Shown here in pieces: positions 6,981 through 62,869 of a stretch of DNA of 64,000 nucleotides; position 1 is the first letter of the stretch, and each line of letters starts with the position of its first letter. The notes under the pieces were generated by a model, which was not told where the DNA came from, did not search any database, and worked only from the letters and a program-made list of their open reading frames with translations. The translations under genes and the position numbers were made by a program. This DNA is from Planctomycetota bacterium (GTDB lineage: Bacteria; Planctomycetota; Planctomycetia; Pirellulales; Pirellulaceae): contig VGZA01000026.1 in NCBI GenBank assembly GCA_016872775.1, positions 11,821 to 75,820 on the forward strand, in the 5' to 3' direction.

Positions 6981-7334
6981 TCAGGCCGCACGTCGCAAGA
7001 CGTGAGTCCTGGCGGGCACCGTGGCAGCGCGTTGCAGCATGGTTCGGATGACGATTTCACCGGCCAGGTCCAGTACCTTGGCGTGTCGGGAACCGGGCAG
7101 CGATCCTTGGGAGATCATCGCTGCAATCTGCTCGTTGAGCACCGGAACGGCTCGGGTCCGAATGTAGCCGCGAGCTTCGTTCATTCCTAGCGTCGGCAGG
7201 CGAGACCGCACGCGATGCCAGACACTTTCCGCAGCCTGCACCGCTACGATTTCAGCGGTACCTTGAAGATCCGGACTGCCGCTGAGTTTCGCGAGTAACT
7301 TGCCGAACATTGTTTCGGGTCCTTTCCGTGCCAT
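6981..7334 (-). CDS. Hypothetical protein (~117 aa).
   Basis: This is the protein-like C-terminal part of track ORF 6981..7820 (MARKGPETMFGKLLAKLSG...). The upstream part of that ORF overlaps the tRNA-Cys gene and is unlikely to be coding. Confidence 0.3.
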   Translation of the reverse strand: MARKGPETMFGKLLAKLSGSPDLQGTAEIVAVQAAESVWHRVRSRLPTLGMNEARGYIRTRAVPVLNEQIAAMISQGSLPGSRHAKVLDLAGEIVIRTMLQRAATVPARTHVLRRAA

Positions 7335-7608
7335 CGAATGCCAGAAATTACCCTCCGTGTCGCGCGGCTCTGGCCATGCCGCCGCGGTGCTACTTCCCTT
7401 CCATCGAATCAGAATCCAGACGATCTTGATTCCCGGGCCGGTCGTATCAGATGGTGCAGGTACATCGAGTTTTTGGCGTGTCGCAACGGGGACCCCGGTC
7501 GGAATGTCGAGGAAATATTGCGCCTCTTCGCGCCGTCGCGCCACTCTAGTCACCGCAGTCCGCCGGAATTCACACATCGGTAATGCCTGCGCCATCCGTC
7601 GATCCCTC

Positions 7609-7637
7609 TTGACCCTTTTTTCTGAAACCCGTACTCT
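7609..7637 (+). promoter_or_regulatory. Candidate σ70-like promoter for tRNA-Cys (TTGACC-17 nt-TACTCT).
   Basis: TTGACC at 7609..7614 and TACTCT at 7632..7637 sit about 20 nt upstream of the tRNA 5' end. Confidence 0.3.
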
Positions 7638-7656
7638 CACTCCAGGTTGATGCGAC

Positions 7657-7727
7657 GGCGCCGTAGCCAAGTGGTAAGGCAGTGGATTGCAAATCCACCA
7701 TCCCCGGTTCAAATCTGGGCGGCGCCT
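7657..7727 (+). tRNA. tRNA-Cys (anticodon GCA).
   Basis: A 71-nt cloverleaf reads GGCGCCG-TA-GCC-AAGTGGTAA-GGC-A-GTGGA-TTGCAAA-TCCAC-CATC-CCCGG-TTCAAAT-CTGGG-CGGCGCC-T. The 7-bp acceptor stem, U33-GCA-A37 anticodon loop and TΨC loop are present. The discriminator is U73, as in Cys tRNAs. No CCA is encoded. Confidence 0.9.
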
Positions 7728-7841
7728 CTTTTTTCGTTTTCGCAATAGCGCGACCGGGACTTCGCCGTCGCGGCGTTGTAGCCGGTTCCTATCAATCCCC
7801 GTTGCCGTTCGGGTTGACAATGTGTCGACGAAGTAGGAAAA

Positions 7842-8489
7842 ATGCGATTCGTTGCACTCCTGACGCTAAGTTTCCTGCCGATATCATCGCTCCCCGCCAC
7901 CGCAGCGGAGTCGGACGCTCAGGAACGGGCGAGTAAAGTCATCGAGGCAGCCGGCGGCGAATCGCAGTTGTTGGATTTGTTTCGATTCCGCGAGCGTGTC
8001 CTGATTACGGATACGCCGGCGCCCCCGGTTGTGAAGGACGAGAAAGAGAATCGCACGTCCGTCGTACGGGTTGGCGGCGACTGGTGGGTCGGCAGCGATA
8101 AACGCGACAAAGACAAGGTCCGCGTATTGTGCTGGGCTTGGAGTCTCCGCATCCTGCGAGACTCGAAGTCGATCCTTCAAACGATTCCCGACATCAAAGT
8201 GGCCGACCAGCCCGCGTTCGGTCTTCGCGTGACCGGGTCCGTTAAGGATCCGATCGACTTGTACTTCGATCATGAAACGAAGCGCCTGGCAGCGATCGAT
8301 TATGACGACACGCGTCACATCTTCAGCGATTGGAAGAAGTCCGAAGATGGCCGCCACTATCCATCGCACGTCGCCGGATTCCGCTTCGAAAATCGCGCGG
8401 CAGGTACCCTCAAATCCAGGCAGTGGTATCAAACCGACATTCTTGAGCTTACGCTGTTGAAAGAACTGCCCAGCGAATTAAAGCGCTAG
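7842..8489 (+). CDS. Secreted hypothetical protein.
   Basis: The 215-aa ORF starts with the signal peptide MRFVALLTLSFLPISSLPATAAE. Confidence 0.5.
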   Translation: MRFVALLTLSFLPISSLPATAAESDAQERASKVIEAAGGESQLLDLFRFRERVLITDTPAPPVVKDEKENRTSVVRVGGDWWVGSDKRDKDKVRVLCWAWSLRILRDSKSILQTIPDIKVADQPAFGLRVTGSVKDPIDLYFDHETKRLAAIDYDDTRHIFSDWKKSEDGRHYPSHVAGFRFENRAAGTLKSRQWYQTDILELTLLKELPSELKR

Positions 8490-24280: not shown

Positions 24281-25693
24281 TTATCCGATCTTCAGCTGAT
24301 CTTCCACCCGTCGCAGCGCATCTTCGACGGGGCAGTGATGCTGGTCGAGTCGGATCGTACATTGCTCGGCGACGAGCTGGTCGACTTTACGTTGGGCGGC
24401 GAGCACGCTGGTGTGGCTGCGCTGGCCGAAGAACTGGCCTATTTCGCTGAGTGCCGCTCGCGTGTGCTTGCGCGCCAACCACATTGCCAGCATCCGCGGG
24501 TGGCTTACCGCCCGCGCTTTGCCACCGGTCTGCAGCGTGCGCGCATCCATGCCGAATACCGTGCAGATCGCCCGCTGAATGTCGGCGAGCCGCACGATCC
24601 GTTTGGTGGCTCGGAAAAGGTCGGCCAGACAGGATCGGGCAAATTCGACGTCGATCGGTCGCTCCAGTGCCGTGCTGCCCGCGTGGATCCGATGCAGCGC
24701 GCCACTCAGCTGCCGCGCGTCCCCGAGCAGTTCCGTCGCGATCAAGGTCAGGACGTCGGAGCTGAGATTCATTCCGCGGCGTTGGGCAAGCTGGGTGACG
24801 ATTGCCAGTCGGGTCTCGAACTCCGCCGGCTGAATTCCACAGACCAAGCCACTTGCCATGCGTGTGATGATCTCGGCGCCCAGGCCGAACAGTTCGGCAG
24901 GCGGTCGATCCGCGGTAAGGACGATCTGGCTTCCGGATCGCTGCAGCATGTCGAGTGTATGTTGGAATTCGACCAGCGTCGCTTTCTTGCCGACGAGAAA
25001 CTGCACATCGTCGATCGCCAGCACGTCGGCATCGCGGCATTTGCGACGGAAGCTCGGCAAGCCACTGTCCTGCAATGCCTCGAGAAACTGGCTGGTGAAC
25101 TGTTCCGACGAAAGATAGACCGCGCGGCGCATTCCTCGGCTTCGCACCGCTTGCACAATCGCCTCGGCAAGGTGGGTCTTTCCACAGCCGGAAGGGCCGA
25201 ACAGGAACAGGGGTGAAACGATGCCGGGCCGCGCCAGCGCGGATTGCGCGGCGGCGTGCGCGACGCGATTATGATCGCCCAGGACAAACTCTTCTAACGT
25301 GGCAAGTCGCCGTCGTCCGCCGGGCACTCCCGCTTGTGGACTGGTCGCCGGTTTGAACGGAAACGTCTGCTGTTTGAGTTGCCCGCGGGGCTCACTGGAC
25401 TCTAGCGGAGACGACAACGGTAACGCCGGCGATGGCAGGAGCGACACGGGCTGCTTCGGGGCGCCAACCACGAATTGGACTTCGACCGACTCGCCGACGA
25501 CCGACCGCACGGCGGTTCGGATCTCCGCCGACAGTTTCGCCCGCAGGCGCTCCCGGGAAAATGCGTCCTGGGCGACTACCGACACGGTGCCCTCCGACAG
25601 TTCGAAGTGCACGTGGTCGCCGAACCACAGTTCGTATCGTTCTTTTCCGACCTTGTCGATCAACTGCTCGCGCAGTCTCGACACGATCTCCAT
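24281..25693 (-). CDS. dnaA: Chromosomal replication initiator DnaA.
   Basis: AAA+ motifs (PLFLFGPSGCGKTHL, VLAIDDVQFL) and the C-terminal DNA-binding domain (SHPRMLAMWLARKHTRAALSEIGQFFG.RSHTSVL) are present. Start chosen at MEIVSRL (25693). The ORF is open up to 25810. Confidence 0.9.
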   Translation of the reverse strand: MEIVSRLREQLIDKVGKERYELWFGDHVHFELSEGTVSVVAQDAFSRERLRAKLSAEIRTAVRSVVGESVEVQFVVGAPKQPVSLLPSPALPLSSPLESSEPRGQLKQQTFPFKPATSPQAGVPGGRRRLATLEEFVLGDHNRVAHAAAQSALARPGIVSPLFLFGPSGCGKTHLAEAIVQAVRSRGMRRAVYLSSEQFTSQFLEALQDSGLPSFRRKCRDADVLAIDDVQFLVGKKATLVEFQHTLDMLQRSGSQIVLTADRPPAELFGLGAEIITRMASGLVCGIQPAEFETRLAIVTQLAQRRGMNLSSDVLTLIATELLGDARQLSGALHRIHAGSTALERPIDVEFARSCLADLFRATKRIVRLADIQRAICTVFGMDARTLQTGGKARAVSHPRMLAMWLARKHTRAALSEIGQFFGQRSHTSVLAAQRKVDQLVAEQCTIRLDQHHCPVEDALRRVEDQLKIG

Positions 25694-26250
25694 ATCGTCC
25701 TTGGCCACGTTCCGACGTATCCCCTGCGCGCACCACATCGTTCGTCCCGCTAACCACCAAGATCCTCGCGAGCATAAAAACACGCGCGTGATGGAGGAAG
25801 GATGTGGCACATTCCGTTAAAGGAAAGCTGGCATCGACCGTCCGTCGCATCCAGCCGAAGGTACTTTACGAAACCGATTCCCTTCAAGCCGGCAAGCCGA
25901 AAACTCCCCGGCCCACAAGCCGGAATTTTTCGCCCCGCTGGCTGAAGCGGAGCCCGATTTTAGTGATGCTAGCACCTCTGTCAAACCTCCTTACGACCCG
26001 CGGCCGAACTTTTTTCGCCGTCGCCTGAATTCGCGAACATTTCTCCGTAAAACTCGGTACGACACACCGGGACATTCCCGGTGTGAATTTTGGCGCGCCG
26101 GTGGAAAAGCTGTCGGCCAAACAGCGTGCCACGTACTGGAATTTTCTGCCGGCGAAATCCGAGACCGCGGCTCGCCTTCGGAACCGCTTACCTTTTCAGG
26201 ACTTTGATGAAAATCCGGCGCCGTACCCACTTGCGGAACCCCTGCCGCTG

Positions 26251-27023: not shown

Positions 27024-27273
27024 CTATTCCTGCAATCCTTCGCTTTCCAGGGCGGAAGCGGATGCGAAAACTCGCCGCAGTGCCGCCAGCCGCCGTGCCG
27101 GCGCGACATGCCGTACTTCGAAATCAATCTGGCCAGCCGGATCGGACATGCAGTTGAAGATAACCCAGGTCGCTGGAACTGGCAGCCGGGCACAGCGATT
27201 GTCTATAATGATTTTGCGATTGCTCGTTTGCTGCCGCTGTCGTGCAACCATGGAGAACCAGGAGGGCCTTACG

Positions 27274-28305
27274 ATGACCAGGGTAGGACGGATTCTTGTT
27301 GTGACAATCGGTTTCGCATTCTTCTCTCCCGAGTCCGTGCGTGGCCAGTCTTTGCTGGAACGGTTGGAAAAGCGGCTGCAGTCGATTGGCGACGAGTTCA
27401 AAGAACCGCTCCGCGGTTCGGCGGGCGACGGTGAGCCGGCGGAGGACCTCGGGCGACCGGCGGACGGGCGGCCCGGTGCGTTGGGCTTGGTGGTCACCGA
27501 CGATCCGGACAGCGATCAGTTGCGCGTCGTTTCGGTTCGTGCCGGCAGTCCGGCGGAAAGAGCGGGATTCGAAGTGGACGACATCATCACTTCGATTGGC
27601 GGTCGCGGCATCCGCACTGCCGAAGAGATGGCCGAAGCGCTCTCGGAAGGCGGACGCGGCGAAAATATCCGGTTCGACGTGCTGCGTGATGGCGACCCCT
27701 TACGCCTGACGGTGATCTGGGGGACTCGTGAACTGCCTGCGAGCGCTCCGCGGATCGCTGTCTCCGAACGCCCATCGCTCGGTATTACCGTGAGACCGGT
27801 CACGGACGACGCTCGGGCTCGCTATGGACTCACCGTTCGACGCGGCGCCTTGATCTCAACCGTGAAGAGTGGAGGTGCCGCCGCCAAATACGGACTACCG
27901 GTCGGCGGGGTCATCGTGACGTTCAACGGGCAACCGATTGAAACGCCTCAGCAGCTCATCGCCGCGGTTCACGGCGCGCAGGTCGGCGAGGAAGTCGAGC
28001 TACGTTATTACCAAGGCGCCGAACTGCATCGGAAGCGCGTTCCGCTGGCGCCCGAGTTGGAACCGACGTCGCCGAACATGAACCGCAATCGGTCCGATGT
28101 CCCCCCCGCAGCGCGCCGCCGCGAAACGCTCGGCACCGAACTGCCGGCGGTTCGGCGCCTGGAAGAACTGCTGGAACGCACGCTGTCGCCCGCGGAACAG
28201 GCCGGCGCGACGCGTCTGGCCGACGAAGTGCAGATGCTGCGGCAGGAAGTCGAGGCCTTAAAGCGGCAGGTTGAGGAATTGACGCGCAAACTCGAGAATC
28301 GATAG
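27274..28305 (+). CDS. Secreted tandem-PDZ domain protein with a C-terminal coiled coil.
   Basis: The ATG follows GGAGGG. The signal peptide is MTRVGRILVVTIGFAFFSPESVRG. Two PDZ-like segments are present (GLVVTDD...GSPAERAGFEVDDIITSIGG and GITVRPVT...GGAAAKYGLPVGGVIVTFNGQPIETPQQL). The C-terminus LRQEVEALKRQVEELTRKLE is a coiled coil. Confidence 0.7.
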   Translation: MTRVGRILVVTIGFAFFSPESVRGQSLLERLEKRLQSIGDEFKEPLRGSAGDGEPAEDLGRPADGRPGALGLVVTDDPDSDQLRVVSVRAGSPAERAGFEVDDIITSIGGRGIRTAEEMAEALSEGGRGENIRFDVLRDGDPLRLTVIWGTRELPASAPRIAVSERPSLGITVRPVTDDARARYGLTVRRGALISTVKSGGAAAKYGLPVGGVIVTFNGQPIETPQQLIAAVHGAQVGEEVELRYYQGAELHRKRVPLAPELEPTSPNMNRNRSDVPPAARRRETLGTELPAVRRLEELLERTLSPAEQAGATRLADEVQMLRQEVEALKRQVEELTRKLENR

Positions 28306-37553: not shown

Positions 37554-37930
37554 GATGTTTGCCCGGCGCAAAAAAAGAGCCCCGCTGCTGGGAACAACGG
37601 GGCTCGGGGCGGGAGTCGACCCCCGGATTCCCTGCAGGTGGGTCGAGCACGAGAGAGTGGAGGTAATGCTCGGAGCGGGAATCAGGCGGCTGGCAGGCAA
37701 TGGGCAGGCGGTGACCATGTGCAGGGTCTGGTTTTGGACACGATTCACCTTTTCCAAGTCATCGGCCGGCAATGCTGGAATCCTTGATGTCGGCTGTCCT
37801 GGACGGCACGTCTTTGGCAGTTTGTCGAATCGTCAGAATCGGCACTCTTTCGCGGACCTGGCACGATCGGGCCGTTGCGGACCGCGGATTTGACGGGCCG
37901 CGAGACAACTTGAAATTCCTCGGAAAGACC

Positions 37931-39613
37931 ATGATGGCTCAACAATATATCTTCACGATGGAGCGGCTGACCAAGAAACATGGTCCCCGCGAGGTCCTTA
38001 AGGAAATCTGGCTGGCATTTTATCCCGGCGCCAAAATTGGCGTGCTGGGACGGAATGGCGCCGGCAAAAGTACGTTGCTGCGGATCATGGCGGGCACCGA
38101 CCGCGACTTCGACGGAACGGCGCGGCTCAGCGACGGATTCTCGTCCGGCTACCTTCCCCAGGAACCGCAGTTGAATCCGGAACGGGACGTCTGGGGCAAC
38201 ATCGCCGAAGCGGTCGAGCCCCGTCGACGAATGCTCGACCGATACAATGAAATCAGCGCCCGGCTCGGGGACCCTCTGGACGAATCCGAAATGCAGAAAC
38301 TGTGCGACGAACTGGCGCGTCTGCAAGATCGGATCGAGGCCGACAATACCTGGAATCTGGATCATGAATTGGAAGTCGCGATGGACGTGATGAACTTGCC
38401 CGAACGGGACGCCGATGTCACGCGGCTGTCGGGAGGGGAACGTCGACGCGTCGCGCTTTGTAAATTGCTCCTGCAACGCCCCGACATGCTTTTGCTGGAT
38501 GAACCGACCAACCACCTCGACGCCGAAGCGGTCGCATGGCTCGAACGGCACCTCGCCGAGTACCATGGAACGATCGTCGCGATCACCCATGACCGTTACT
38601 TCCTCGATAATGTCGCCAAGTGGATCCTGGAACTCGATCGCGGCCAAGGCATTCCTTGGGAAGGGAACTATTCTTCGTGGCTCGAACAGAAACAGGCCCG
38701 CCTGCAGCGCGAGGAAAAATCGCAGGAAGCGCGGCAAAAAACCCTGGCACGCGAACTGGAGTGGGTCCGCATGTCGCCGCGCGCCCGGCAGTCAAAAAGC
38801 AAGGCACGCATCAAGGCCTACGAACAGATGGCGTCCGAGCGATTCGAGGAACGGCCGGACGAATTCGAATTACAGATTCCACCGGGAAAACACCTGGGCG
38901 AACTGGTGATCGACGCGGACGGAATTAGCAAAGCGTATGGCGATCGGTTGTTGTTCGAGAATCTCAGTTTTCGATTGCCGGCCGGCGGAATCGTTGGCGT
39001 GATTGGACCCAACGGAGCAGGAAAGACAACTTTGTTCCGCATGTTTGTGGGTGAGGAACGCCCCGACGACGGTCAACTGCGCCTGGGTGAAACCGTGGAA
39101 TTGGGCTATGTCGACCAGAACCGCGACGCCTTGTCGCCGGAGAAAACGGTCTACGAGGAGATTTCGGGCGGAAACGACCTGCTGGAAATGGGCGGCAGGA
39201 AGATCCATGCCCGGGCCTACGTATCGCGCTTCAATTTCCGCGGACCCGACCAGGAGAAAAAAGTCGGCCAGCTTTCCGGAGGAGAACGCAATCGCGTGCA
39301 TCTCGCTAAACTGCTGCGCCGTGGTTCGAACGTACTGCTGCTGGATGAACCAACGAACGATCTCGATGTCGATACCCTGCGGGCACTTGAAGAGGCGATC
39401 TTGAACTACGTCGGCTGCGTGGTCGTGATTACGCACGATCGCTGGTTCCTCGATCGTATCGCCACCCATATTCTCGCCTTTGAGGGCGACGCTTATGTGC
39501 ATTGGTGCGAGGGCAATTTCCAGACCTACGAGGAACAACGCCGCGCCCGGCTGGGCATCGCCGTCGACGAGCCCCAGCGGTTTCGATACAAACGATTACA
39601 GAAACGATCATAA
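37931..39613 (+). CDS. ettA: Energy-dependent translational throttle protein EttA (ABC-F ATPase).
   Basis: MMAQQYIFTMERLTKKHG starts the protein. Two ABC cassettes are present (GRNGAGKST and GPNGAGKTT). The ABC signature LSGGERRRVALCKLL is seen in cassette 1, and LSGGERNRVHLAKLL in cassette 2. Length 560 aa. Confidence 0.9.
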   Translation: MMAQQYIFTMERLTKKHGPREVLKEIWLAFYPGAKIGVLGRNGAGKSTLLRIMAGTDRDFDGTARLSDGFSSGYLPQEPQLNPERDVWGNIAEAVEPRRRMLDRYNEISARLGDPLDESEMQKLCDELARLQDRIEADNTWNLDHELEVAMDVMNLPERDADVTRLSGGERRRVALCKLLLQRPDMLLLDEPTNHLDAEAVAWLERHLAEYHGTIVAITHDRYFLDNVAKWILELDRGQGIPWEGNYSSWLEQKQARLQREEKSQEARQKTLARELEWVRMSPRARQSKSKARIKAYEQMASERFEERPDEFELQIPPGKHLGELVIDADGISKAYGDRLLFENLSFRLPAGGIVGVIGPNGAGKTTLFRMFVGEERPDDGQLRLGETVELGYVDQNRDALSPEKTVYEEISGGNDLLEMGGRKIHARAYVSRFNFRGPDQEKKVGQLSGGERNRVHLAKLLRRGSNVLLLDEPTNDLDVDTLRALEEAILNYVGCVVVITHDRWFLDRIATHILAFEGDAYVHWCEGNFQTYEEQRRARLGIAVDEPQRFRYKRLQKRS

Positions 39614-42333: not shown

Positions 42334-44250
42334 ATGGCGATCGACCTGATTCTGGGAACCGCGGGCCACATCGATCACGGAAAGACCTCGTTGATCCGTG
42401 CGCTGACCGGTACCGACCCGGACCGACTGCCCGAGGAAAAACGCCGGGGGATCACGATCGACATCGGCTTCGCCCATCTCGACCTGGGCGCGTATCGGCT
42501 TGGAATCGTCGACGTACCGGGTCACGAGCGTTTTGTCCGCAACATGCTGGCCGGCGCCACCGGAATGGACCTGGCGATGCTGGTGGTGGCTGCCGACGAT
42601 TCGATCAAGCCGCAGACGCTGGAACACCTCGAAATTCTCCGTTTGCTGAAGCTGCCAGCTGGCGTGATCGTATTGACCAAGTCGGACATGGTGGATGCGG
42701 AATGGCTCGATCTGGTCGAGAGTGAAATCCGTGAACTGGTGGCCGGTACGTTCCTGGAATCGGCTCCGATTGTGCGGACGAGCATCGTCCGCAATTCCGG
42801 GTTTGACGAGCTGAAATCGGCGCTGCGTGTTGCGGCGGAGCGTGCCGCCGTGGCGCGCGGGCAAACCGACTCGAATAACCCGTTCCGCATGGCGATCGAC
42901 CGCGTATTCACTCTGGCGGGGCACGGGACGGTCGTCACCGGAAGCGTGAGCAGCGGCAGCTGTGCGACCGGGGACGAACTGCACCTGGAACCGGGCAGCA
43001 TTCCGGTTCGGGTACGGGGTATTGAGAACCATGACCACAGCGTTGAACGGGTGGTGCGCGGGCAACGAGCGGCGATCAATCTGGTAGGCGTCCATCACGA
43101 GCAGGTCCACCGCGGGCATGAGCTGGCGACACCGGGCCATTTGCGTTCCAGCCGCGTGTTAACGGTTCAGTTTACGTTGCTGCCGACCGCCGCGCATCCG
43201 CTGAAGAGCCGACAACGCGTACGACTGCACGTGGGAACAGCCGAAATCCTCGCGTCGGTAATGCTGCTCGACCGCGACCGGTTGGAACCGGGCGAATTGG
43301 GCTCCCTGCAGCTGTTTCTGCTGCAGGGAGCGGCCACGACCTGGGGACAGCCGTTCGTCTTACGCAGCGAATCGCCGGTAATCACGATCGGCGGCGGAAG
43401 GGTGCTCGATCCCGATGCCGAACGGTTGCGCCGACCTGATGCGGACACGCTCGAACAAGTTCGCTCGCTCAGCAGCGACGAGCCTTTGGTACGTGCTGGA
43501 GCGGCGTTGTTCCTGGCCGGATTTCGTGACTGGCGTCCCGACGACTGGCAGCGGTCGGCCGGCATCACAGCCACCGCGCCGGTTTACGACGCCTTGAAAG
43601 GTCGAGGAGACGTCATTGAAATCCCCCTGTCGCCGACCCGAAATTGGCGGGGCCACCGACTCGTGCTCGACCGACTTTGCGACCGGATCGCCGCCGCGCT
43701 GGAAACGTTGCATCGCCAGAACCCGTTACGCATGACCCTGGACCGTTCGCGTGTCGGCAGCGGATTCGCCTACTTGCCTGACCCGGCCTTGTTTGATGCG
43801 GCACTGGAGCGAATGCGCCGGGCCGGTCGGCTGAGGATCGTCCCGAACGGAATCACGCTGGCGGGACAGGGGCCCAAGTTGTCGGCCAATGAGCAGAAGC
43901 TGTTGACGCAGATTGTCGACCAGTATCGTGCGGCCGGCGTTGAGCCGCCCACGGTTAAAGAACTCCAGGCGCAAACGGTGAAAAATCAAAATGCCGTTCC
44001 GCAACTCGTGTCGCTGGCGGCCGATGACGGGCAGCTGGTCAAGATCAATAACGATTTCTACCTCCATGCCGACGTCGACCGGGAGATTCGCGAGAAGCTA
44101 CGGCCGCAGTTGGCCGACCAGGGCCTGACGGTCAGCCAGATCCGGGAGTTGCTCGGGACCTCGCGCAAGTACGCCTTGCCCCTTTGCGAACATTTCGACA
44201 AGGTCGGATTCACGCGCCGTCTGGGCGATGTACGATATCTTGGGAGTTAA
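42334..44250 (+). CDS. selB: Selenocysteine-specific elongation factor SelB.
   Basis: The EF-Tu-like GTPase starts [34 protein letters not shown] and the C-terminal winged-helix extension are present. Length 638 aa. Confidence 0.9.
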
Positions 44251-44294: not shown

Positions 44295-45689
44295 ATGGCA
44301 CCCAACGTGCTTCGCAACATCCCGTCCGTCAACGAATTGCTGGAGAGCCCGCCGCTGCGCGGGCTGGTCGAGCGGGTTAATCGCAACGTGGTGGTGAGCG
44401 GTGTCCGCTCCTTCCTGGACAACCTGCGGGGCGACCTGCAGTCGGTGACCGACTTCCGCGTGCCAACGCCGACCGAATTGGCCGAGACGATTGCGTCCTG
44501 GATCCTGGCCGGCGAGGAACCGCCGCTGCGGCCCGTAATCAATGCCACGGGAGTCCTGCTGCATACCGGGCTGGGCCGAGCGCCCTTGGCGGAAGAAGCG
44601 GTGGCGGCGATGGTGGAAGTCAGCCGCGGCTACGCCAGCGTGGAACTCGACTTGAAATCCGGTGAGCGTTCCCAGCGCATCGTGGCGGTCGAGAAGCTGC
44701 TTTGCCAGGTCACCGGCGCCGAAGCTGCCGTCGTCGTGAATAACAACGCCGGCGCGACTCTGCTGGCCCTGACCGCGTTGGGATTAGGACGGGAAATCAT
44801 CGTCTCCCGCGGGCAGCTGATCGAGATCGGCGGCAGCTATCGCCTGCCCGACATCATGACCGCCAGCGGCGCCCGACTGCGGGAAGTGGGGACGACAAAC
44901 AAGACCCGCATCGCCGATTTCGCCAACGCGATCGGCGAACAGACCGCCGCGATGATGCGGGTGCACACCAGTAACTACGTTGTCTGTGGTTTTACCGAAC
45001 AGCCAACCCTGGAGGAACTCGTCGTGCTGGGCCGGGACAAGAACCTGCCGGTGATCGACGACATTGGGTCCGGTGCTTTGATCGACTTCGCCGAATTCGG
45101 CCTGAAAGGCGAACCGATCGCTTCGCAGAGCGTCGCGACCGGGGCCGACCTGGTGCTGTTCAGCGGCGACAAGCTGCTTGGCGGTCCTCAGTGCGGTGTC
45201 GTCGTCGGCAAACGACGCTGGGTGGACCGATTGAGTAAGCATCCGTTGACCCGCGCGCTGCGTGTCGATAAGGTGACGCTGGCCGGCCTCGCCGCCACGT
45301 TGAGGCTGTATCAGGATCCCGCCAAAGCACGCGAGGCGGTGCCGCTGCTGGCCTTGTTGGGAACGTCGATGGAGAACCTGCATCTGCGGGCGGAACGCAT
45401 CGCTCAAAAACTGGCCGTCGTGCCTGGCGTCCGATCGGCGGCGGTCCAGGAGGGTACCACGTTTCTTGGCGGCGGCTCCATCCCCACCCAACAGATCGGT
45501 ACCTGGTGCGTGGCGATCGAACCTCAGTCGGCGTCAGTCGACCTGTTCGCCAACTCCTTACGCGCCGGGATGCCGGCGGTTGTGGGACGCATCCAGCAGG
45601 GAAAACTGCTGCTCGACCTCCGCTCGGTACTGCCCCGGCAGGACATCGAATTGTCCGACGCCGTCGAAACCGTAACGCGAAACTTGTAG
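44295..45689 (+). CDS. selA: L-seryl-tRNA(Sec) selenium transferase SelA.
   Basis: LRNIPSVNELL...VINATGVLLHTGLGRAPL...GGPQCGVVVGKRRWV...DKVTLAGL matches the SelA family. Length 464 aa. Confidence 0.9.
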   Translation: MAPNVLRNIPSVNELLESPPLRGLVERVNRNVVVSGVRSFLDNLRGDLQSVTDFRVPTPTELAETIASWILAGEEPPLRPVINATGVLLHTGLGRAPLAEEAVAAMVEVSRGYASVELDLKSGERSQRIVAVEKLLCQVTGAEAAVVVNNNAGATLLALTALGLGREIIVSRGQLIEIGGSYRLPDIMTASGARLREVGTTNKTRIADFANAIGEQTAAMMRVHTSNYVVCGFTEQPTLEELVVLGRDKNLPVIDDIGSGALIDFAEFGLKGEPIASQSVATGADLVLFSGDKLLGGPQCGVVVGKRRWVDRLSKHPLTRALRVDKVTLAGLAATLRLYQDPAKAREAVPLLALLGTSMENLHLRAERIAQKLAVVPGVRSAAVQEGTTFLGGGSIPTQQIGTWCVAIEPQSASVDLFANSLRAGMPAVVGRIQQGKLLLDLRSVLPRQDIELSDAVETVTRNL

Positions 45690-47530: not shown

Positions 47531-49015
47531 ATGATCATGGAAAGCCGGTTCGATCGCACGGGGATTACTTTCGACGATGTGCTCCTGGAGCCCCGTTACA
47601 GCGACGTCGTTCCGGCGGAGGTAAGCGTCGCCACGCAGGTTACCCGCTCGATTTCGCTCAATGTGCCCCTGCTGAGCTCACCGATGGACACCGTGACCCA
47701 GAGCGCCATGGCGATCGCACTGGCCAAAGAGGGCGGAATCGGCGTGATCCACAAAAATATGTCGGTGGAGCATCAGACCGAAGAAGTCAACAAGGTGAAG
47801 CGGAGCGCCAACGGCATCATCCGCGATCCGGTCACCCTCCCCCCCGACCAGCCCGTTTCACGCGCCTTGGAACTGATGGCGCAGCAGAACGTTTCGGGGA
47901 TCCCGATCACGCTAGCATCCGGGCGGCTGGTCGGCATCCTGACGCGACGCGACATGAAGTTCCTCGAGCGCAGCCACCTTGCCATTTCAGAAGTTATGAC
48001 GAAAGAGGGATTGGTAACGGCTACGGGAACTGTGTCGTTGGAGGAAGCGGAGAAGATTTTGACGGCTAAAAAGGTGGAGAAACTGCTCCTGGTTGACGAA
48101 AATTACAACCTGACCGGATTAATTACGATCCGGGACATCGACATGATGAAGCGGTTCCCCAATGCTTGCAAGGACAGCCTGGGCCGATTGCGGGTGGGGG
48201 CGGCCATTGGAGTCAACGATTTCGAGCGTGCGGAGAGCCTGATCGCCAAAGACGTCGATCTGCTGGTCGTCGATTCGGCCCATGGGCATTCGGCGAATGT
48301 GATCGCAACGGTCAGGGAACTCAAGCGACGCTGGTCGATCGACGTCGTGGCGGGCAACGTGGCAACGTATGAAGGGAGTCAGGATCTGATTCGGGCGGGT
48401 GCGGACGCGGTCAAGGTCGGAATTGGGCCTGGATCGATCTGTACGACGCGCGTGATCTCCGGAGTCGGCGTACCACAAGTGACCGCCATTTACGAAGCGG
48501 CACGGGCGGCGAGCGGCACTGGGACGCCGATTATTGCCGATGGCGGAATTCGTTATTCGGGTGACATTACGAAAGCGATTGCGGCGGGAGCTCACTGTGT
48601 AATGATCGGGGGCTTGTTCGCCGGGTTGGCGGAGAGTCCTGGGACGACGATTCTGTACAAGGGTCGAACGTTCAAGGCCTACCGCGGGATGGGATCGTTA
48701 GGTGCGATGGTAAAAGGGTCCAGTGAACGGTATCGCCAGGGCGAGTCGGGCACGGGGAAACTGGTACCGGAAGGAGTCGAAGGGCGGGTGCCGTTCAAAG
48801 GCCCGCTCAGCGACTTCATATATCAGCTTGTGGGGGGGCTCCGAGCTGGTATGGGTTACTGTGGAACGCGGACGATTGCCGAATTGCGCACGGATGCACG
48901 GTTCATTCGTGTTACTGCGGCCAGCGTAAGAGAGAGCCACCCCCATGATATTGCGATCACTCAAGAATCTCCGAATTACAGCCCGGATTATTCCACGACA
49001 GGTGAGGACCAGTAA
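47531..49015 (+). CDS. guaB: IMP dehydrogenase.
   Basis: [21 protein letters not shown] starts the protein. Two CBS domains, the catalytic loop [11 protein letters not shown] and [17 protein letters not shown] are present. Confidence 0.95.
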
Positions 49016-50330
49016 CGGGCTCAATCCGGGCCTGCTGCGCGGACTGTTGAAGACCACCGGCAAAACGGTCGTGTGGAGTGGCTTGCTGGCGTCTTGCTTC
49101 CCCTGTTTTGCCGCTGACGGTCGTCCAACCGAGGCCCGTGTAACCCGTTCGGCGCTGCAGTGGCAGCCACGGCGCGCGGTCGAAAGGATCGCCGTCGATC
49201 TCTCGGATTCTCCGATCGAGGAGGCCGCGGAAGGCAAACAGGTCGGGTACGAATCGAAAGGCTGCGGTTGGGAGTCGGGGCTGAAATGGCGCGTTAAGGC
49301 ACCGACGGAATTCGCCACGGCTCGGGAGATTTCCCCGATGCCGGAGCGGCATTCGTTCATTCGCACCGTCAGCCACACTGCCGCGGCCAAAGCGGTGCGC
49401 GATGCGGAATCGGACGGTAACCGGCGCGCGGTCGATCCGTTCGACGAACCGTTCGGCGATCGTTCCAGCAGCGAGACGGACGCCCGTGACGAGAGCGTTC
49501 TCAATGCGCCCCAGACGCTGGTCGCCAGGCGTGCGGAAGCGCAAAAGCCGGCTGCCGCTCCCCGACCAATCGCCTATCGGGACGATCGAGCGTCTCGCTT
49601 GAACGACCTGCGGGCGACCAACGAGCGCGACTGTGTTGCCGCGATCGGCAAGTGCACCGACGCTCGCAAGAGACTCCGCAGCGAGAGCATCGCGGATATC
49701 TCGGTTGATATTACGCCGGCTTACAAAACCGATCCCAAGAATGTCGAAGAGGCCCAGGCGGAACTCGAGAAGCTCTACAACAATCGGGACTTCAAGGAAC
49801 ACACGTTCAAAGATCGGGCGGGCAACATCGTGGCCCACGGTAAGCTTAAGAACTACCTTCGCGGCAAGATCGTGGTCACCAGGGAAGATGGGACCGACAC
49901 CCTGATCCCGTATCGGGACTTGAGCGACGAGGATATGTGCTTTCTGTCAGCCTGGTGGCGGCTGCCGACCGAATGTACGCTCGGCGGCGAACCGCTCCTG
50001 GCCCGCAACTGGAATCCGTCGACGATGACCTGGAAAGCGTCCGCACTCTGCCACAAGCCGCTCTACTTCGAAGAGACGCAGTTGGAACGTTACGGACATA
50101 CCACGGGACCGCTTTCGCAGCCGATACTCTCCAGTGCTCATTTCTTCACGAATATCGCGGTTTTGCCCTACAAGATGGGCATCAATCCGCTCAACGAGTG
50201 CCAGTACGCCCTCGGCTATTACCGGCCTGGAAGCTGTGCGCCCTGGCTGCTGCCACCCATACCGATCAGTGTTCGAGGCGCCTTGGCGGAGGCGGGAACG
50301 GTGATCGCTGGCGTGGCGGTACTACCCTGA
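49002..50330 (+). CDS. Hypothetical secreted/membrane protein.
   Basis: Track ORF 48945..50330. A GTG at 49002 gives a signal-like [30 protein letters not shown] and reduces the overlap with guaB. The start is uncertain. Confidence 0.45.
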
Positions 50331-50430
50331 TCGATTCTGTTCTTCGGGAGCGATTGGCTCGCAAACGGTGGAGTGCACCCGCACTCCACCGTTTGACTTT
50401 TCATGCGTTGATCTTGCAATCGTTGCCTTT

Positions 50431-50724: not shown

Positions 50725-51408
50725 ATGGATACCTTCTGCTTGAATCGGGAGCAAGCCCAAGCGATCGACCGGTACGCGATCGATCGGCTGGCGATCCCCG
50801 GGACGATTCTGATGGAGAATGCGGGGCGGGGCTGCGTGGACGCGATGTTGGATGCCGGTCTGCGCGGTCCGGTCACGGTCTGTTGCGGCCGTGGCAACAA
50901 TGGTGGCGACGGGATGGTGATTGCCCGCCACTTGTTGCGGCACGGCATCACCTGCCGGACCATGGTCTGGGGCCCCGCTGACAAATTGGCTCCCGACGCG
51001 CTCCGGAATTGGACGATTCTGCAGCGGGCGGGGCATCCGGTCGCCAGGATCGATCAGGAGTCGGACGTGGACGCCTGCCGCGAGTTGCTGGAGGGGGCCG
51101 CCTGGATTGTCGACGCGCTGTTGGGCACCGGTACGCGCGGCGCGCCGCGCTCGCCTCTGGATCACTGGATCGACGCCATCAACCGCAGCGCCGCACGGCG
51201 GGTCGCGATCGACATTCCCAGCGGACTCGATGCCGACACCGGTGAGCCGGCCAGCAGCACGGTTCGCGCTGCGATCACCTGCACGATGGTGGCGCCCAAG
51301 ACCGGTTTCGCCAATCCTCGGGCACGGGAATTTTTCGGGGAACTGCGGGTGGTCGATATCGGCGTCCCGTTGGACTGGCTGCATCAGGCCGCATTGCCGG
51401 GAAATTGA
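50725..51408 (+). CDS. nnrE: NAD(P)H-hydrate epimerase (YjeF N-terminal domain).
   Basis: LIPGTILMENAGRGCVDAM and VCCGRGNNGGDGMVIARHL match the YjeF-N family. Confidence 0.8.
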   Translation: MDTFCLNREQAQAIDRYAIDRLAIPGTILMENAGRGCVDAMLDAGLRGPVTVCCGRGNNGGDGMVIARHLLRHGITCRTMVWGPADKLAPDALRNWTILQRAGHPVARIDQESDVDACRELLEGAAWIVDALLGTGTRGAPRSPLDHWIDAINRSAARRVAIDIPSGLDADTGEPASSTVRAAITCTMVAPKTGFANPRAREFFGELRVVDIGVPLDWLHQAALPGN

Positions 51409-51481
51409 AAACAATTTACCATGCGAAGGCTTCGCCAGGCGGAACGGCGAACCAACCAGGAATCCTTTCGGGCGCGGATGC

Positions 51482-52414
51482 ATGATGCGGTTCGACGATT
51501 TATTCGGCAAATTGATCGACTTGGCCGTGCGGCTGTGCGCGGAAGCCCAGGCCGACGCGCTGCTGATCATGCTTCCCGGCCCCACCGATTGGGAACGGCT
51601 CCGCGAACACTGCGACCGCTACAAGGTGATCGTCAGTGCCGAATCGGCGGAACATCTGGCAGGCGCCGCGGAAGCCGGCCTGGAAGCACTCGCCCTGGAA
51701 CAGTCCGATGTTCCGGTCGCGGAAAAAATGACGCAGGCCCTGCTGCTTGGTGTCGCCCGGGAAATGCTGCAACCAGGCGCTGGCGTCGTGGCCGTCTACA
51801 GCGGATTCGAGGACGACGTCGTTGACTCGCTGAGCTTCATCTGGTTAGACGAGCACCTGGGCCGATTGACCGCACGCGACCTGCAGAAACTGGGGACCAG
51901 CGTCCCGCTGGAAACATTGAAGACCGTGGTCGACGTCGCTGTCGAGATCGGCCGCGAGGGTCGCGAAGGCAAGCCGGTGGGAACGATGTTTGTCGTGGGC
52001 GACACGCGCCGCGTCTTACAACATGTTCATCCGGCCGGCTTCGATCCCGTCAAGGGATATGGCCGCAAGGACCGATCGCTGCACGATTCCAGAGTCCGCG
52101 AAGCGATCAAGGAAATTGCGCCGCTGGATGGTGCGTTCATCATCTCGTCCGATGGCACCGTCGAGAAGGCCTGTCAATTGATCGACGCCACGCACGCCAG
52201 CCTGACGCTGTCGCGTGGACTTGGATCCCGGCACTGGGCCGCCGCCGCGATCAGCAAAGTCACCAGCGCCGTTGCGGTGGTGGTCAGTGAATCGAATGGG
52301 ACCGTGAGAATATTTCAGAACGGCGAGGTTGTTTTGCGCGTCGAACCGTTTCGGCGAGCGATGAAGTGGAAGGGGTTCGACTCCGATCTGCCATCGACAT
52401 CGACCGCGGAATAA
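51482..52414 (+). CDS. Diadenylate cyclase (DAC/DisA_N) domain protein with an unrelated ~150-aa N-terminal region and no TM segment.
   Basis: GKPVGTMFVVGDT ... LHDSRVREAIKEIAPLDGAFIISSDGTVEKACQLIDA ... LGSRHWAAAAISKVTSAVAVVVSESNGTVRIF matches the DAC fold (DGA/RHRAA/VSEE-type motifs). Confidence 0.7.
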   Translation: MMRFDDLFGKLIDLAVRLCAEAQADALLIMLPGPTDWERLREHCDRYKVIVSAESAEHLAGAAEAGLEALALEQSDVPVAEKMTQALLLGVAREMLQPGAGVVAVYSGFEDDVVDSLSFIWLDEHLGRLTARDLQKLGTSVPLETLKTVVDVAVEIGREGREGKPVGTMFVVGDTRRVLQHVHPAGFDPVKGYGRKDRSLHDSRVREAIKEIAPLDGAFIISSDGTVEKACQLIDATHASLTLSRGLGSRHWAAAAISKVTSAVAVVVSESNGTVRIFQNGEVVLRVEPFRRAMKWKGFDSDLPSTSTAE

Positions 52415-56873: not shown

Positions 56874-57470
56874 ATGTTCACCGGTCTAATAGAAGGTACC
56901 TGTCGCGTCGTGGAACCGCGCAACGTGGAACCTGGAATGCGATTGATCGTTGAATCCCAGGCGATGGCCAGCGAGGCCCACATCGGCGACAGCATTGCGC
57001 TCAGCGGCTGTTGCCTTACTGTCGTGCAACTTGATACCGCGCTGCTGCACTTTGAATTGGGCCCGGAAACGCTGCAAAGAACGAAACTGGGGCGCATCCA
57101 GACCGACCAGTTGTTGAACTGGGAACGCTCGTTGCGTGCCGGGGATCGACTGGGCGGCCATTTTGTCACCGGGCACGTCGATGCCACCGCCGTGCTCGAG
57201 GAGCGTCACGACGATCGCGAATGGTCGACGTTCTGGTTTCGCCTTCCCGCGTTGTGGACGCGCCAGATGGTCCCCAAAGGCTCGATCACGGTGGATGGCG
57301 TGAGCCTGACCCTGGTCGAAGTGGAATCCGAGCGATTCAGCGTCTGTTTGATCCCTCATACCCTGGCGGTAACGACGCTCGGCAGGTTAAAACGGGGTGA
57401 TACAGTGAATATCGAAACTGACCTCCTCGCCAAGTACGTCGAAAAACAGCTCGCAGGATTCCGCGCGTGA
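56874..57470 (+). CDS. ribE: Riboflavin synthase α-subunit.
   Basis: MFTGLIEGTCRVV...GDSIALSGCCLTVV, the repeated lumazine-binding half VNIETDLLAKYV and NGVSLTLVEV match riboflavin synthase. Confidence 0.9.
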   Translation: MFTGLIEGTCRVVEPRNVEPGMRLIVESQAMASEAHIGDSIALSGCCLTVVQLDTALLHFELGPETLQRTKLGRIQTDQLLNWERSLRAGDRLGGHFVTGHVDATAVLEERHDDREWSTFWFRLPALWTRQMVPKGSITVDGVSLTLVEVESERFSVCLIPHTLAVTTLGRLKRGDTVNIETDLLAKYVEKQLAGFRA

Positions 57471-58390
57471 CCACCAGTTCGCCTCGCCAGACCGTTTCCT
57501 ACTTGATGCGTCGTTTCGGCGAGGTAGGAATCCAGCCGCAGACCCGCTACGGCCAGAATTTTCTGATCGACATCAACCTGATCGACCTGCTGGTCCAGTC
57601 GGCGAATTTGAGGCCGACCGACATCGTGTTGGAAGTCGGTACCGGAACCGGCAGTTTAACCGCCAATCTTGCCGCGCGGGTGGCGGGGGTACTGACCGTC
57701 GAGATCGACCCACACCTGTTTGCCCTGGCCAGCGAAACATTGATCGATCTGCCCAACGTCACGATGCTGCAGGTCGACGCTCTGAAAAACAAAAACCGCC
57801 TGCATCCGGAATTGCTGGCGGCGCTCGAAGAACTCCGCACTCGTTACTCGCCGGGCCCCCTGAAGCTGGTCGCCAACCTGCCGTATAACATTGCCACTCC
57901 GCTGATTTCCAACCTGCTCGATCTGCCGGTCCCGCCGGAGTCGATGACGGTTACGATTCAGAAGGAGCTTGCCGAGCGGATTGCCGCTCGACCCCGAACC
58001 AAGGACTACAGCGCACTGAGTTTCTGGATTCAATCGCAGTGCGACGTCGAAATCAAACGGATCATGGCGCCGACCGTGTTCTGGCCTCGCCCCAAGGTCG
58101 AGTCGGCGATCATTCAGATCACATTCAACCCTGAATTGCGAAGCCGGATTTGCGATCTGAGCTACTGGCACGCGTTCTTGCGGGCGATGTTCTTCCATCG
58201 TCGTAAGTTCCTGCGCAGCGAACTGCTGAGCGCCTTCAAGGGTCGGTTGAGCAAGCCGGAGGTCGATGCGATCTTGGTGGAAATGGGCTTTGCTCCCGAG
58301 ACCCGGGCGGAAGAACTCGATGTCGCCGCGATGCTGCGACTGTGCGACCGCATGCGGAGCCAGTTTCCCGACTGGAAACTGCCCGGATGA
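57467..58390 (+). CDS. rsmA: 16S rRNA (adenine1518/1519-N6)-dimethyltransferase RsmA/KsgA.
   Basis: YGQNFLIDINLIDLL, VLEVGTGTGSLTANLA and VANLPYNI are RsmA motifs. Confidence 0.9.
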   Translation: MTTSSPRQTVSYLMRRFGEVGIQPQTRYGQNFLIDINLIDLLVQSANLRPTDIVLEVGTGTGSLTANLAARVAGVLTVEIDPHLFALASETLIDLPNVTMLQVDALKNKNRLHPELLAALEELRTRYSPGPLKLVANLPYNIATPLISNLLDLPVPPESMTVTIQKELAERIAARPRTKDYSALSFWIQSQCDVEIKRIMAPTVFWPRPKVESAIIQITFNPELRSRICDLSYWHAFLRAMFFHRRKFLRSELLSAFKGRLSKPEVDAILVEMGFAPETRAEELDVAAMLRLCDRMRSQFPDWKLPG

Positions 58391-58490: not shown

Positions 58491-58590
58491 GGAAGTGCCT
58501 GCACACCTGGTGGTGGCCACAGTCTTCAAAACTGCTGTGCCGTACGATAACCGTGCGGCAGGTGGGTTCGATTCCCATGCACTTCCGCCA
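58491..58590 (+). tRNA. selC: tRNA-Sec (selC), anticodon UCA, with CCA encoded.
   Basis: The 100-nt gene has an 8-bp acceptor stem (GGAAGTGC / GCACTTCC). The anticodon loop is CTTCAAA, identical to E. coli selC. A long extra arm (GCCGTACG-ATAAC-CGTGCGGC, 8 bp) is present. The T-arm is GTGGG-TTCGATT-CCCAT (5 bp), giving the 8/5 bacterial Sec structure. Discriminator G plus CCA at 58588..58590. One irregular position (bulged C) lies in the anticodon stem. Confidence 0.8.
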
Positions 58591-58642
58591 TTTAATTGCG
58601 GCAATTCGCGTAGACTCGTCGCGATGGGCGCAAGCCACGGAG

Positions 58643-58830
58643 TCATCTTGCGTTGGGTGGGCTGACTGCGATTCGCCGCCATTCCGCGTCCGGGGCCGCA
58701 GCGATGATCTTGCTTGTTTCATCCCGTGTCACGAAGTATTGCCGCGCAGCATTCCCTGCCGGCGCGGAAACCAGCTTGGCAAATGGGTTGACGGAAACTA
58801 TTTCGTGTTCCACGGCCCGCGCGAAAAGTC
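58643..58830 (-). pseudogene. Remnant of a tyrosine recombinase/phage-integrase gene (N-terminal core-binding segment only) abutting tRNA-Sec.
   Basis: The C-terminal part of track ORF 58643..58984 reads [53 protein letters not shown]. This fits the integrase pattern NP..k.p.....r.lT.eE...l..A....w. The catalytic domain, which would lie toward and over the tRNA, is absent. Confidence 0.4.
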
Positions 58831-59260
58831 CGCGTCTTGAACGAACTGGGGCTGGGATGTCTGAAGCTGGGACATCCATCGACGATTCTCTCCGGGGGCG
58901 AAGCGCAACGGGTGAAGCTGGCCGGGGAACTGGGCAAAATGACGCGTGGCAAGCACAACCTGTATTTGCTGGACGAACCGACAACGGGCTTGCATTTTGC
59001 CGACATTGACCGGCTGCTGATCAGTCTGAATCGGGTGGTGGACCACGGTCATTCCGTGGTGGTGATTGAACACAATCTGGACGTGGTCAAGACCGCCGAT
59101 TATGTGTTCGACCTGGGGACGGAGGGCGGGCATAACCGGGGGCTGCCTGATTGCCTGCGGCCCGCCGGAGGCGGTCGCTGCTTGCCCGGTATCCCATGCC
59201 GGACGGTTCCTTACGGACTACCTGGACCGCCAGTTTGCCCGATCGTCAGGCAACCCATAA
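58791..59260 (+). pseudogene. uvrA: UvrA C-terminal fragment (last ~150 aa of excinuclease ABC subunit A), frameshifted, with no upstream body.
   Basis: The frame after TGA 58788 reads [110 protein letters not shown]. This matches the UvrA signature II/Walker B/H-loop. The terminal [29 protein letters not shown] is in a different frame (track ORF 59066..59260). Confidence 0.6.

Positions 59261-59482: not shown

Positions 59483-62869
<3,387 letters not shown>

Follow-up and report, generated by a model that had tools for sequence, protein, structure and literature searches.

The 100 nucleotides at positions 58491 to 58590 raise the question of whether this DNA encodes a working selenocysteine tRNA, how the extra bases in the stems of that tRNA are to be understood, and what the broken genes directly behind it record. 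In the window (i.e., the whole 64-kb stretch of DNA analyzed here), ARAGORN reports a tRNA-SeC gene with the anticodon TCA at 58491-58590 (+), the same coordinates at which the first-pass annotation had placed a tRNA-Sec gene of the bacterial 8/5 structure; tRNA-Cys at 7657-7728 is the only other tRNA that the program finds there (n = 2). A search of the whole window with Rfam 15 gives a match to the tRNA-Sec model RF01852 at 58491-58586, with a score of 66.9 bits (gathering score, 47; E = 1.8e-11). The alignment covers model positions 1 to 91, i.e., the full length, and outcompetes the general tRNA model within the tRNA clan, and RF01852 is the sole significant match in a permissive Rfam rescan of the region. 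The covariance score that had been suggested as a check therefore lies well above the threshold, and tRNA-Ser or tRNA-Leu, the alternative named in the same annotation, is disfavored by both the clan competition and the ARAGORN type, which is SeC. The gene had been called hidden, which is overstated because standard tRNA finders report it at their default settings. The call by ARAGORN, the RF01852 match, the cloverleaf of minimum free energy, and the covariation among 12 homologues described below all concern the same 100-nt gene for tRNA-Sec(UCA) with an encoded CCA, and we are highly confident that it is the functional selC of an uncultured Pirellulales (Planctomycetota) bacterium; that it is expressed, charged, and used in decoding we infer. 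It is a standard bacterial tRNA-Sec, structurally neither unusual nor new, and default annotation tools report it.

Folded without constraints in ViennaRNA, the 100 nucleotides reach a minimum free energy of -45.4 kcal/mol (z = -3.9), a stability attained by none of 200 shuffled sequences, and the fold reproduces the 8+5 cloverleaf. The 5' strand of the acceptor stem (58491-58498) forms 8 bp with 58579-58586; this stem, GGAAGTGC/GCACTTCC, is present in the sequence and in the fold as first described, and it is invariant in 12 Pirellulales-type copies. A linker, CU (58499-58500), leads to the D-arm (58501-58517), which has a 6-bp stem, a 4-nt loop, UGGU (58508-58511), and a bulged A at 58503 (11a in the Aquifex aeolicus numbering) that the first-pass annotation overlooked. 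The anticodon arm (58518-58537), on which ARAGORN, the folds, and the alignment agree, consists of a 6-bp stem with a bulged C at 58535 and the loop CUUCAAA, with the anticodon UCA at 58526-58528; as had been noted, this loop is identical to that of Escherichia coli K-12 selC. The extra (variable) arm (58538-58560) has a stem of 9 bp, not 8 bp as first counted, and a 5-nt loop, and a single linker G (58561) separates it from the T-arm (58562-58578). The T-arm is found by Rfam and the folds alike and is invariant; its 5-bp stem, GTGGG/CCCAT, opens with a G-U pair and closes on the loop UUCGAUU, in agreement with the earlier description. The 3' part of the gene (58579-58590) comprises the acceptor 3' strand (58579-58586), the discriminator G at 58587 (G73), and the encoded CCA at 58588-58590, again as previously read. 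The gene thus combines UCA in a 7-nt loop, a 13-bp acceptor/T helix (8+5), G73, and an RF01852 score above gathering with a 6-bp D-stem and 4-nt D-loop and with a very long extra arm, for which the bacterial range is a stem of 6 to 9 bp; these are features that define tRNA-Sec.

The closest structural counterpart is the tRNA-Sec of A. aeolicus. In its crystal structure, the acceptor stem has 8 bp and the T stem 5 bp, the D-stem (with a 4-nt D-loop) and the anticodon stem have 6 bp each, and an extra stem of 9 bp is followed by the linker G48 (PMC3711452; Itoh et al. 2013). The tRNA in the window shares the 8-bp acceptor and 5-bp T stems, the 6-bp D-stem, the 4-nt D-loop, the 9-bp extra stem with its linker G, and a two-base linker that joins the acceptor stem to the D-arm, and its D-loop UGGU and T-loop UUCGAUU correspond to the description of the crystal structure (PMC3711452). 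The linker is CU here and UU in A. aeolicus, and apart from the shared elements the two sequences are not related. E. coli K-12 selC (b3658) has in common with the window gene the loop CUUCAAA, the 8+5 fold, G73, the encoded CCA, the G-U first pair of the T-stem, and the ends 5' GGAAG...CUUCC 3'. On the other hand, E. coli selC is 95 nt long, has no bulge in the D-stem or the anticodon stem and a shorter extra arm, and does not lie beside rsmA.

The same gene recurs in independently assembled DNA of the same population and, in diverged form, in relatives. An identical copy of the protein encoded by the neighboring ribE is present on each of 19 metagenome contigs; all five retrieved contigs that reach far enough, which come from independent metagenome assemblies of the same population, give the same tRNA-SeC call in the same place, and selC on one of them (L004) is base-for-base identical to that of the window. 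A search of species-representative genomes with RsmA, the product of the gene upstream, returned only Pirellulales/Planctomycetota metagenome-assembled genomes, the closest at 76% identity, and tRNA-SeC lies downstream of rsmA in 4 of the 80 Pirellulales loci examined. Further homologues were taken from metagenomes, in which a scan with the 27-nt 3' segment of selC hit at least 120 contigs and yielded 7 further distinct 97-nt sequences of the same architecture.

A consensus fold of five sequences is the same as the minimum free energy structure of the window and already shows compensatory changes in 9 of 34 pairs. In an ungapped alignment of 12 distinct Pirellulales-type sequences, 99.3% of the cells of these 34 pairs hold standard pairs, against 90.3% in shuffled alignments and 36 to 48% when the partners are slid; 13 of the 34 pairs have changed on both sides, and none of 500 shuffles reaches any of the observed measures. 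The covarying pairs cluster in the D-stem (4 of 6) and in the extra arm, where 8 of 9 carry compensatory changes. In the anticodon stem, 95.8% of the cells are paired once the bulge is allowed, and the A31-U43 pair of the window is G-C in the other 11 of the 12 homologues. Pair 29:46, beside the bulge, is the weakest, being unpaired in 3 of the 12, and in some homologues a 1x2 internal loop, with the invariant C28-G47 as its closing pair, describes this region better. In the acceptor and T stems, 100% of the cells are paired and no position varies among the 12 homologues, so that these stems provide no covariation evidence within the clade; this invariance arises partly by construction, because the 7 metagenome sequences were chosen by an exact match to a 27-mer spanning T-arm and acceptor 3' strand. 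Compared with E. coli selC, both bases have changed in two acceptor pairs. As read from this alignment, the compensatory changes indicate purifying selection on the structure of the tRNA.

The bulged C in the anticodon stem had been regarded as either a feature of the lineage or an assembly indel. An indel is rejected as its origin, since the base is present in the independent assemblies (five in number) and in all 12 homologues; the same holds for the bulged A, i.e., both extra bases (alignment columns 13 and 45) occur throughout, which is why neither is an assembly error. Both bases are thus real, but they are not peculiar to the lineage either. The A. aeolicus tRNA-Sec carries the bulges C11a in the D-stem and U43a in the anticodon stem, and such bulges are called frequent in bacteria (PMC3711452). 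The flipped-out C11a follows the second pair of the D-stem, as A58503 does here, and in both tRNAs a single base bulges from the 3' strand of the 6-bp anticodon stem; the anticodon-stem bulge in the window lies between the fourth and fifth pairs from the loop (3 of the 12 homologues having the 1x2 internal loop instead), whereas that of A. aeolicus is at 43a. The Secmarker survey likewise places bulges of bacterial tRNA-Sec at 43a in the anticodon stem and 13a in the D-stem (PMC5330540). The tRNA of the window agrees with the RF01852/Secmarker set in its full-length match above the gathering score and in having bulges of the kinds recorded in bacteria, although the survey emphasizes them mainly for an unusual 7+5 class without G73 and the present tRNA is a canonical 8+5, G73 molecule (PMC5330540). 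The bulged A at 58503 and the bulged C at 58535 are normal features of bacterial tRNA-Sec, and they should not be "corrected" as assembly errors.

A long extra arm and G73 are also common to tRNA-Ser, and when the bulge is left out, the Rfam alignment contains two noncanonical pairs at the base of the anticodon stem. These observations would fit a type-2 or UGA-reading tRNA that does not carry selenocysteine, whether a relative of tRNA-Ser or tRNA-Leu or a tRNA-Sec-like ("allo") tRNA inserting serine or cysteine at UGA. Such an identity is extremely improbable and largely refuted already: tRNA-Sec is set apart by its 8+5 helix, its 6-bp D-stem with a 4-nt loop, and its extra stem of 9 bp (PMC3711452), the model competition and the ARAGORN type favor tRNA-Sec as described above, the anticodon stem pairs almost completely when the bulge is admitted, and the window contains intact selA and selB genes.

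These two genes lie side by side on the same strand, 13 to 16 kb upstream of selC, and both products score above the curated equivalog cut-offs. selB (42334-44250, +), for the selenocysteine-specific elongation factor, matches TIGR00475 with 360 bits (cut-off, 242), and selA (44295-45689, +), for L-seryl-tRNA(Sec) selenium transferase, matches TIGR00474 with 539 bits (cut-off, 268). A scan of the larger ORFs of the 64-kb window recovered no selD. The proposal that the tRNA completes a selenocysteine-decoding set in the window consequently applies to selA, selB, and selC but not to selD. With the tRNA identified as selC, the established bacterial pathway suggests the following course from the computed 8+5 cloverleaf onward. 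SerRS would charge the tRNA with serine by way of the long extra arm and G73, and SelA, encoded 13 kb upstream, would convert the serine to selenocysteine on the tRNA. SelB-GTP, encoded beside selA, would then deliver the selenocysteinyl-tRNA to an in-frame UGA followed by a SECIS hairpin, and the 13-bp acceptor/T helix would exclude EF-Tu.

A crude GC3-based screen of the window for coding frames that continue through TGA produced no convincing selenoprotein gene; its output consists of extensions that are short or implausible, none with a motif of the CxxU type. Neither selD nor a convincing selenoprotein gene with an in-frame UGA is seen in the 64 kb, so the window by itself gives no proof that the tRNA is put to use. 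One ORF of 461 aa (48945-50396, +), which matches no family, ends at a TGA (50328), after which 21 further codons in the same frame have a GC3 like that of coding DNA; this TGA is most likely a plain stop, with no selenocysteine motif evident. A PDZ protein (27148-28305) matches a "Trx7/PDZ (seleno)protein" family weakly, and its reading as a selenoprotein was rejected, there being several stops upstream in frame and no Trx part. As selC, selA, and selB all occur in this genome, selenocysteine should be considered for an in-frame UGA elsewhere in the genome before a stop or a pseudogene is called.

Upstream of selC, the nearest ORF (57467-58390, +) encodes the 16S rRNA dimethyladenosine transferase RsmA/KsgA (TIGR00755, 219 bits; cut-off, 171) and ends 100 nt before the tRNA, which bears out the placement of the gene 3' of rsmA. 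The adjacency is not a conserved operon feature: only the closest relative, L008, has the two genes close together (65 nt), and in three more of the 80 genomes the arrangement is loose, at approximately 0.5 kb (L024), 2.7 kb (L056), and 3.6 kb (L086). A consensus scan of the plus strand found no sigma-70-like promoter or intrinsic terminator flanking selC. The tRNA is probably transcribed by read-through from ribE-rsmA or from a promoter that such a scan does not recognize.

The roughly 700 bases 3' of selC are a collection of gene fragments. The first of them (58591-58690, -) is a noncoding remnant with 79% DNA identity to a stretch of L008 (11050-11149) that still encodes the C terminus of a tyrosine integrase, i.e., it is the 3' end of an integrase gene that was once convergent on selC. 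This similarity covers approximately 100 nt directly after the tRNA, although the spacer upstream of the tRNA cannot be aligned between the window and L008. A structured RNA or terminator was considered as an explanation for the conserved trailer and rejected (z = 0.21 for the sequence of the window; no Rfam match) in favor of the integrase remnant. A second fragment (58670-58834, -) encodes 55 aa with 65% identity to residues 164 to 218 of the intact 434-aa integrase of L024 (tblastn E = 8e-20), and it has a weak PHROG integrase match. The third (58801-59224, +) is the C-terminal part of UvrA, approximately 140 of some 940 aa, which is frameshifted near 59114-59130 according to TIGR00630, the frame analysis, and tblastn alignments mapped from contig L001; the ORF at 58837-59313 matches positions 813 to 912 of the 924 in TIGR00630 only, and the similarity extends in a different frame as far as about 59224. 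All contigs with the UvrA fragment belong to the same population, and no full-length uvrA was found beside selC in the relatives.

Relatives show what the integrase fragments derive from. The homologues in L024 (434 aa) and L152 (455 aa) are tyrosine recombinases with PF00589 and SAM-like arm domains, and their intact genes (7001-8305, -, in L024; 3705-5072, +, in L152) lie directly 3' of selC in convergent orientation. The final codons of both genes (…EVHGNRTH…) read as the T-arm and acceptor 3' end of the tRNA in reverse complement. In L008, the C-terminal approximately 100 aa of the same integrase abut selC, and of the intact recombinase that stands beside the tRNA 3' end in L024 and L152 only 55 aa survive in the window. 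CCA is genome-encoded in 8 of the 12 Pirellulales-type selC loci; it is absent in L024 (TTA) and L152 (CTA), both of which have the intact convergent integrase. Integrases with approximately 40% identity occur on IMG/VR viral contigs, and behind one of them lies a 3' piece of another tRNA in antisense orientation, as is typical of int-attP arrangements.

tRNA genes, and selC particularly in enterobacteria, are classic integration sites, and a scar of this kind at selC is accordingly ordinary. The scar is most simply read as the decayed remains of an integrative element formerly inserted at selC. A broader model, to which we give somewhat less than an even chance, is that selC in Pirellulales is a recurrent target of a family of temperate elements whose tyrosine-integrase ORF is convergent with the tRNA gene and ends within that gene, on the other strand; selC in the window would then be an old attL junction, its 3' half supplied by the element and the element itself reduced to the integrase and UvrA fragments. 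If this is true, the selC integration hotspot of enterobacteria extends to Planctomycetota. The LEE and PAI-I are islands integrated at E. coli selC, and as with islands and prophages at tRNA 3' ends, a tyrosine integrase abuts the 3' end of selC in L024 and L152. Unlike those islands, the window retains fragments only (55 aa of the integrase and, from the 3' end of its gene, about 100 nt) and no attR, and the integrase family and the host phylum are different. A search for attR, as a repeat of the selC 3' 21-mer or 30-mer with at most three mismatches, found no other copy in the window, which contains only 5.4 kb downstream of the gene, and no GC or compositional step that would mark an island was found in the window. 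The integrase and UvrA fragments mark a past integration, which is useful for interpreting the local gene order.

The same debris could be taken to mean that selC itself is decaying or nonfunctional, e.g., an att-site hybrid left by the element, with the extra bases as damage or assembly indels: the integrase remnant and the UvrA fragment lie directly 3' of the tRNA, and the overlap of an intact integrase gene with the tRNA 3' end in the relatives implies that an element could have supplied the 3' part. We consider a decayed gene very unlikely. All stems are intact, the same two extra bases recur in every homologue and in the independent assemblies, the compensatory changes point to purifying selection on the structure, and no second copy or fragment of selC is seen in the 64-kb window. 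Moreover, integration at the 3' end of a tRNA gene normally regenerates a functional gene.

Partial and variant copies of tRNA-Sec were also encountered in the metagenomes. Twelve loci (L089, L091, L092, L119, L124, L151, L158, L161, L167, L179, L188, and L193) contain only the 3' part of a tRNA-Sec, either from the anticodon loop onward or the last approximately 27 nt, and the DNA that precedes it is unrelated and mostly AT-rich; these loci look like partial att-site copies left by elements integrated at the selC of other bacteria. Approximately 50 loci among L088 to L207 (e.g., L095, L102, and L126) hold a class of tRNA-Sec that starts with GGAAGTGG, lacks both bulges, and has the exact 27-nt 3' segment. 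In this class, a G stands opposite a G at the eighth acceptor pair, and the GGAAGTGG class could be a natural variant of the 7+5 type or could have arisen when an integrating element replaced the 3' end.

Several other genes of the window were identified along with these. dnaA (24281-25810, -) matches TIGR00362 with 348 bits (cut-off, 344), and its presence in the window means that the chromosomal replication origin may be nearby. Beyond the fragments 3' of selC, an ORF at 59483-62869 (+) encodes a fusion protein of 1,128 aa with a fatty-acyl-AMP ligase-like AMP-binding domain, a carrier-protein (PP-binding) domain, and a class I/II aminotransferase domain, which were assigned from precomputed Pfam matches on the identical gene in L001. 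The genes for EttA, the ABC-F translational throttle (37772-39613, +; 911 bits), and for a DacZ-like diadenylate cyclase (50921-52414, +) provide a housekeeping context.
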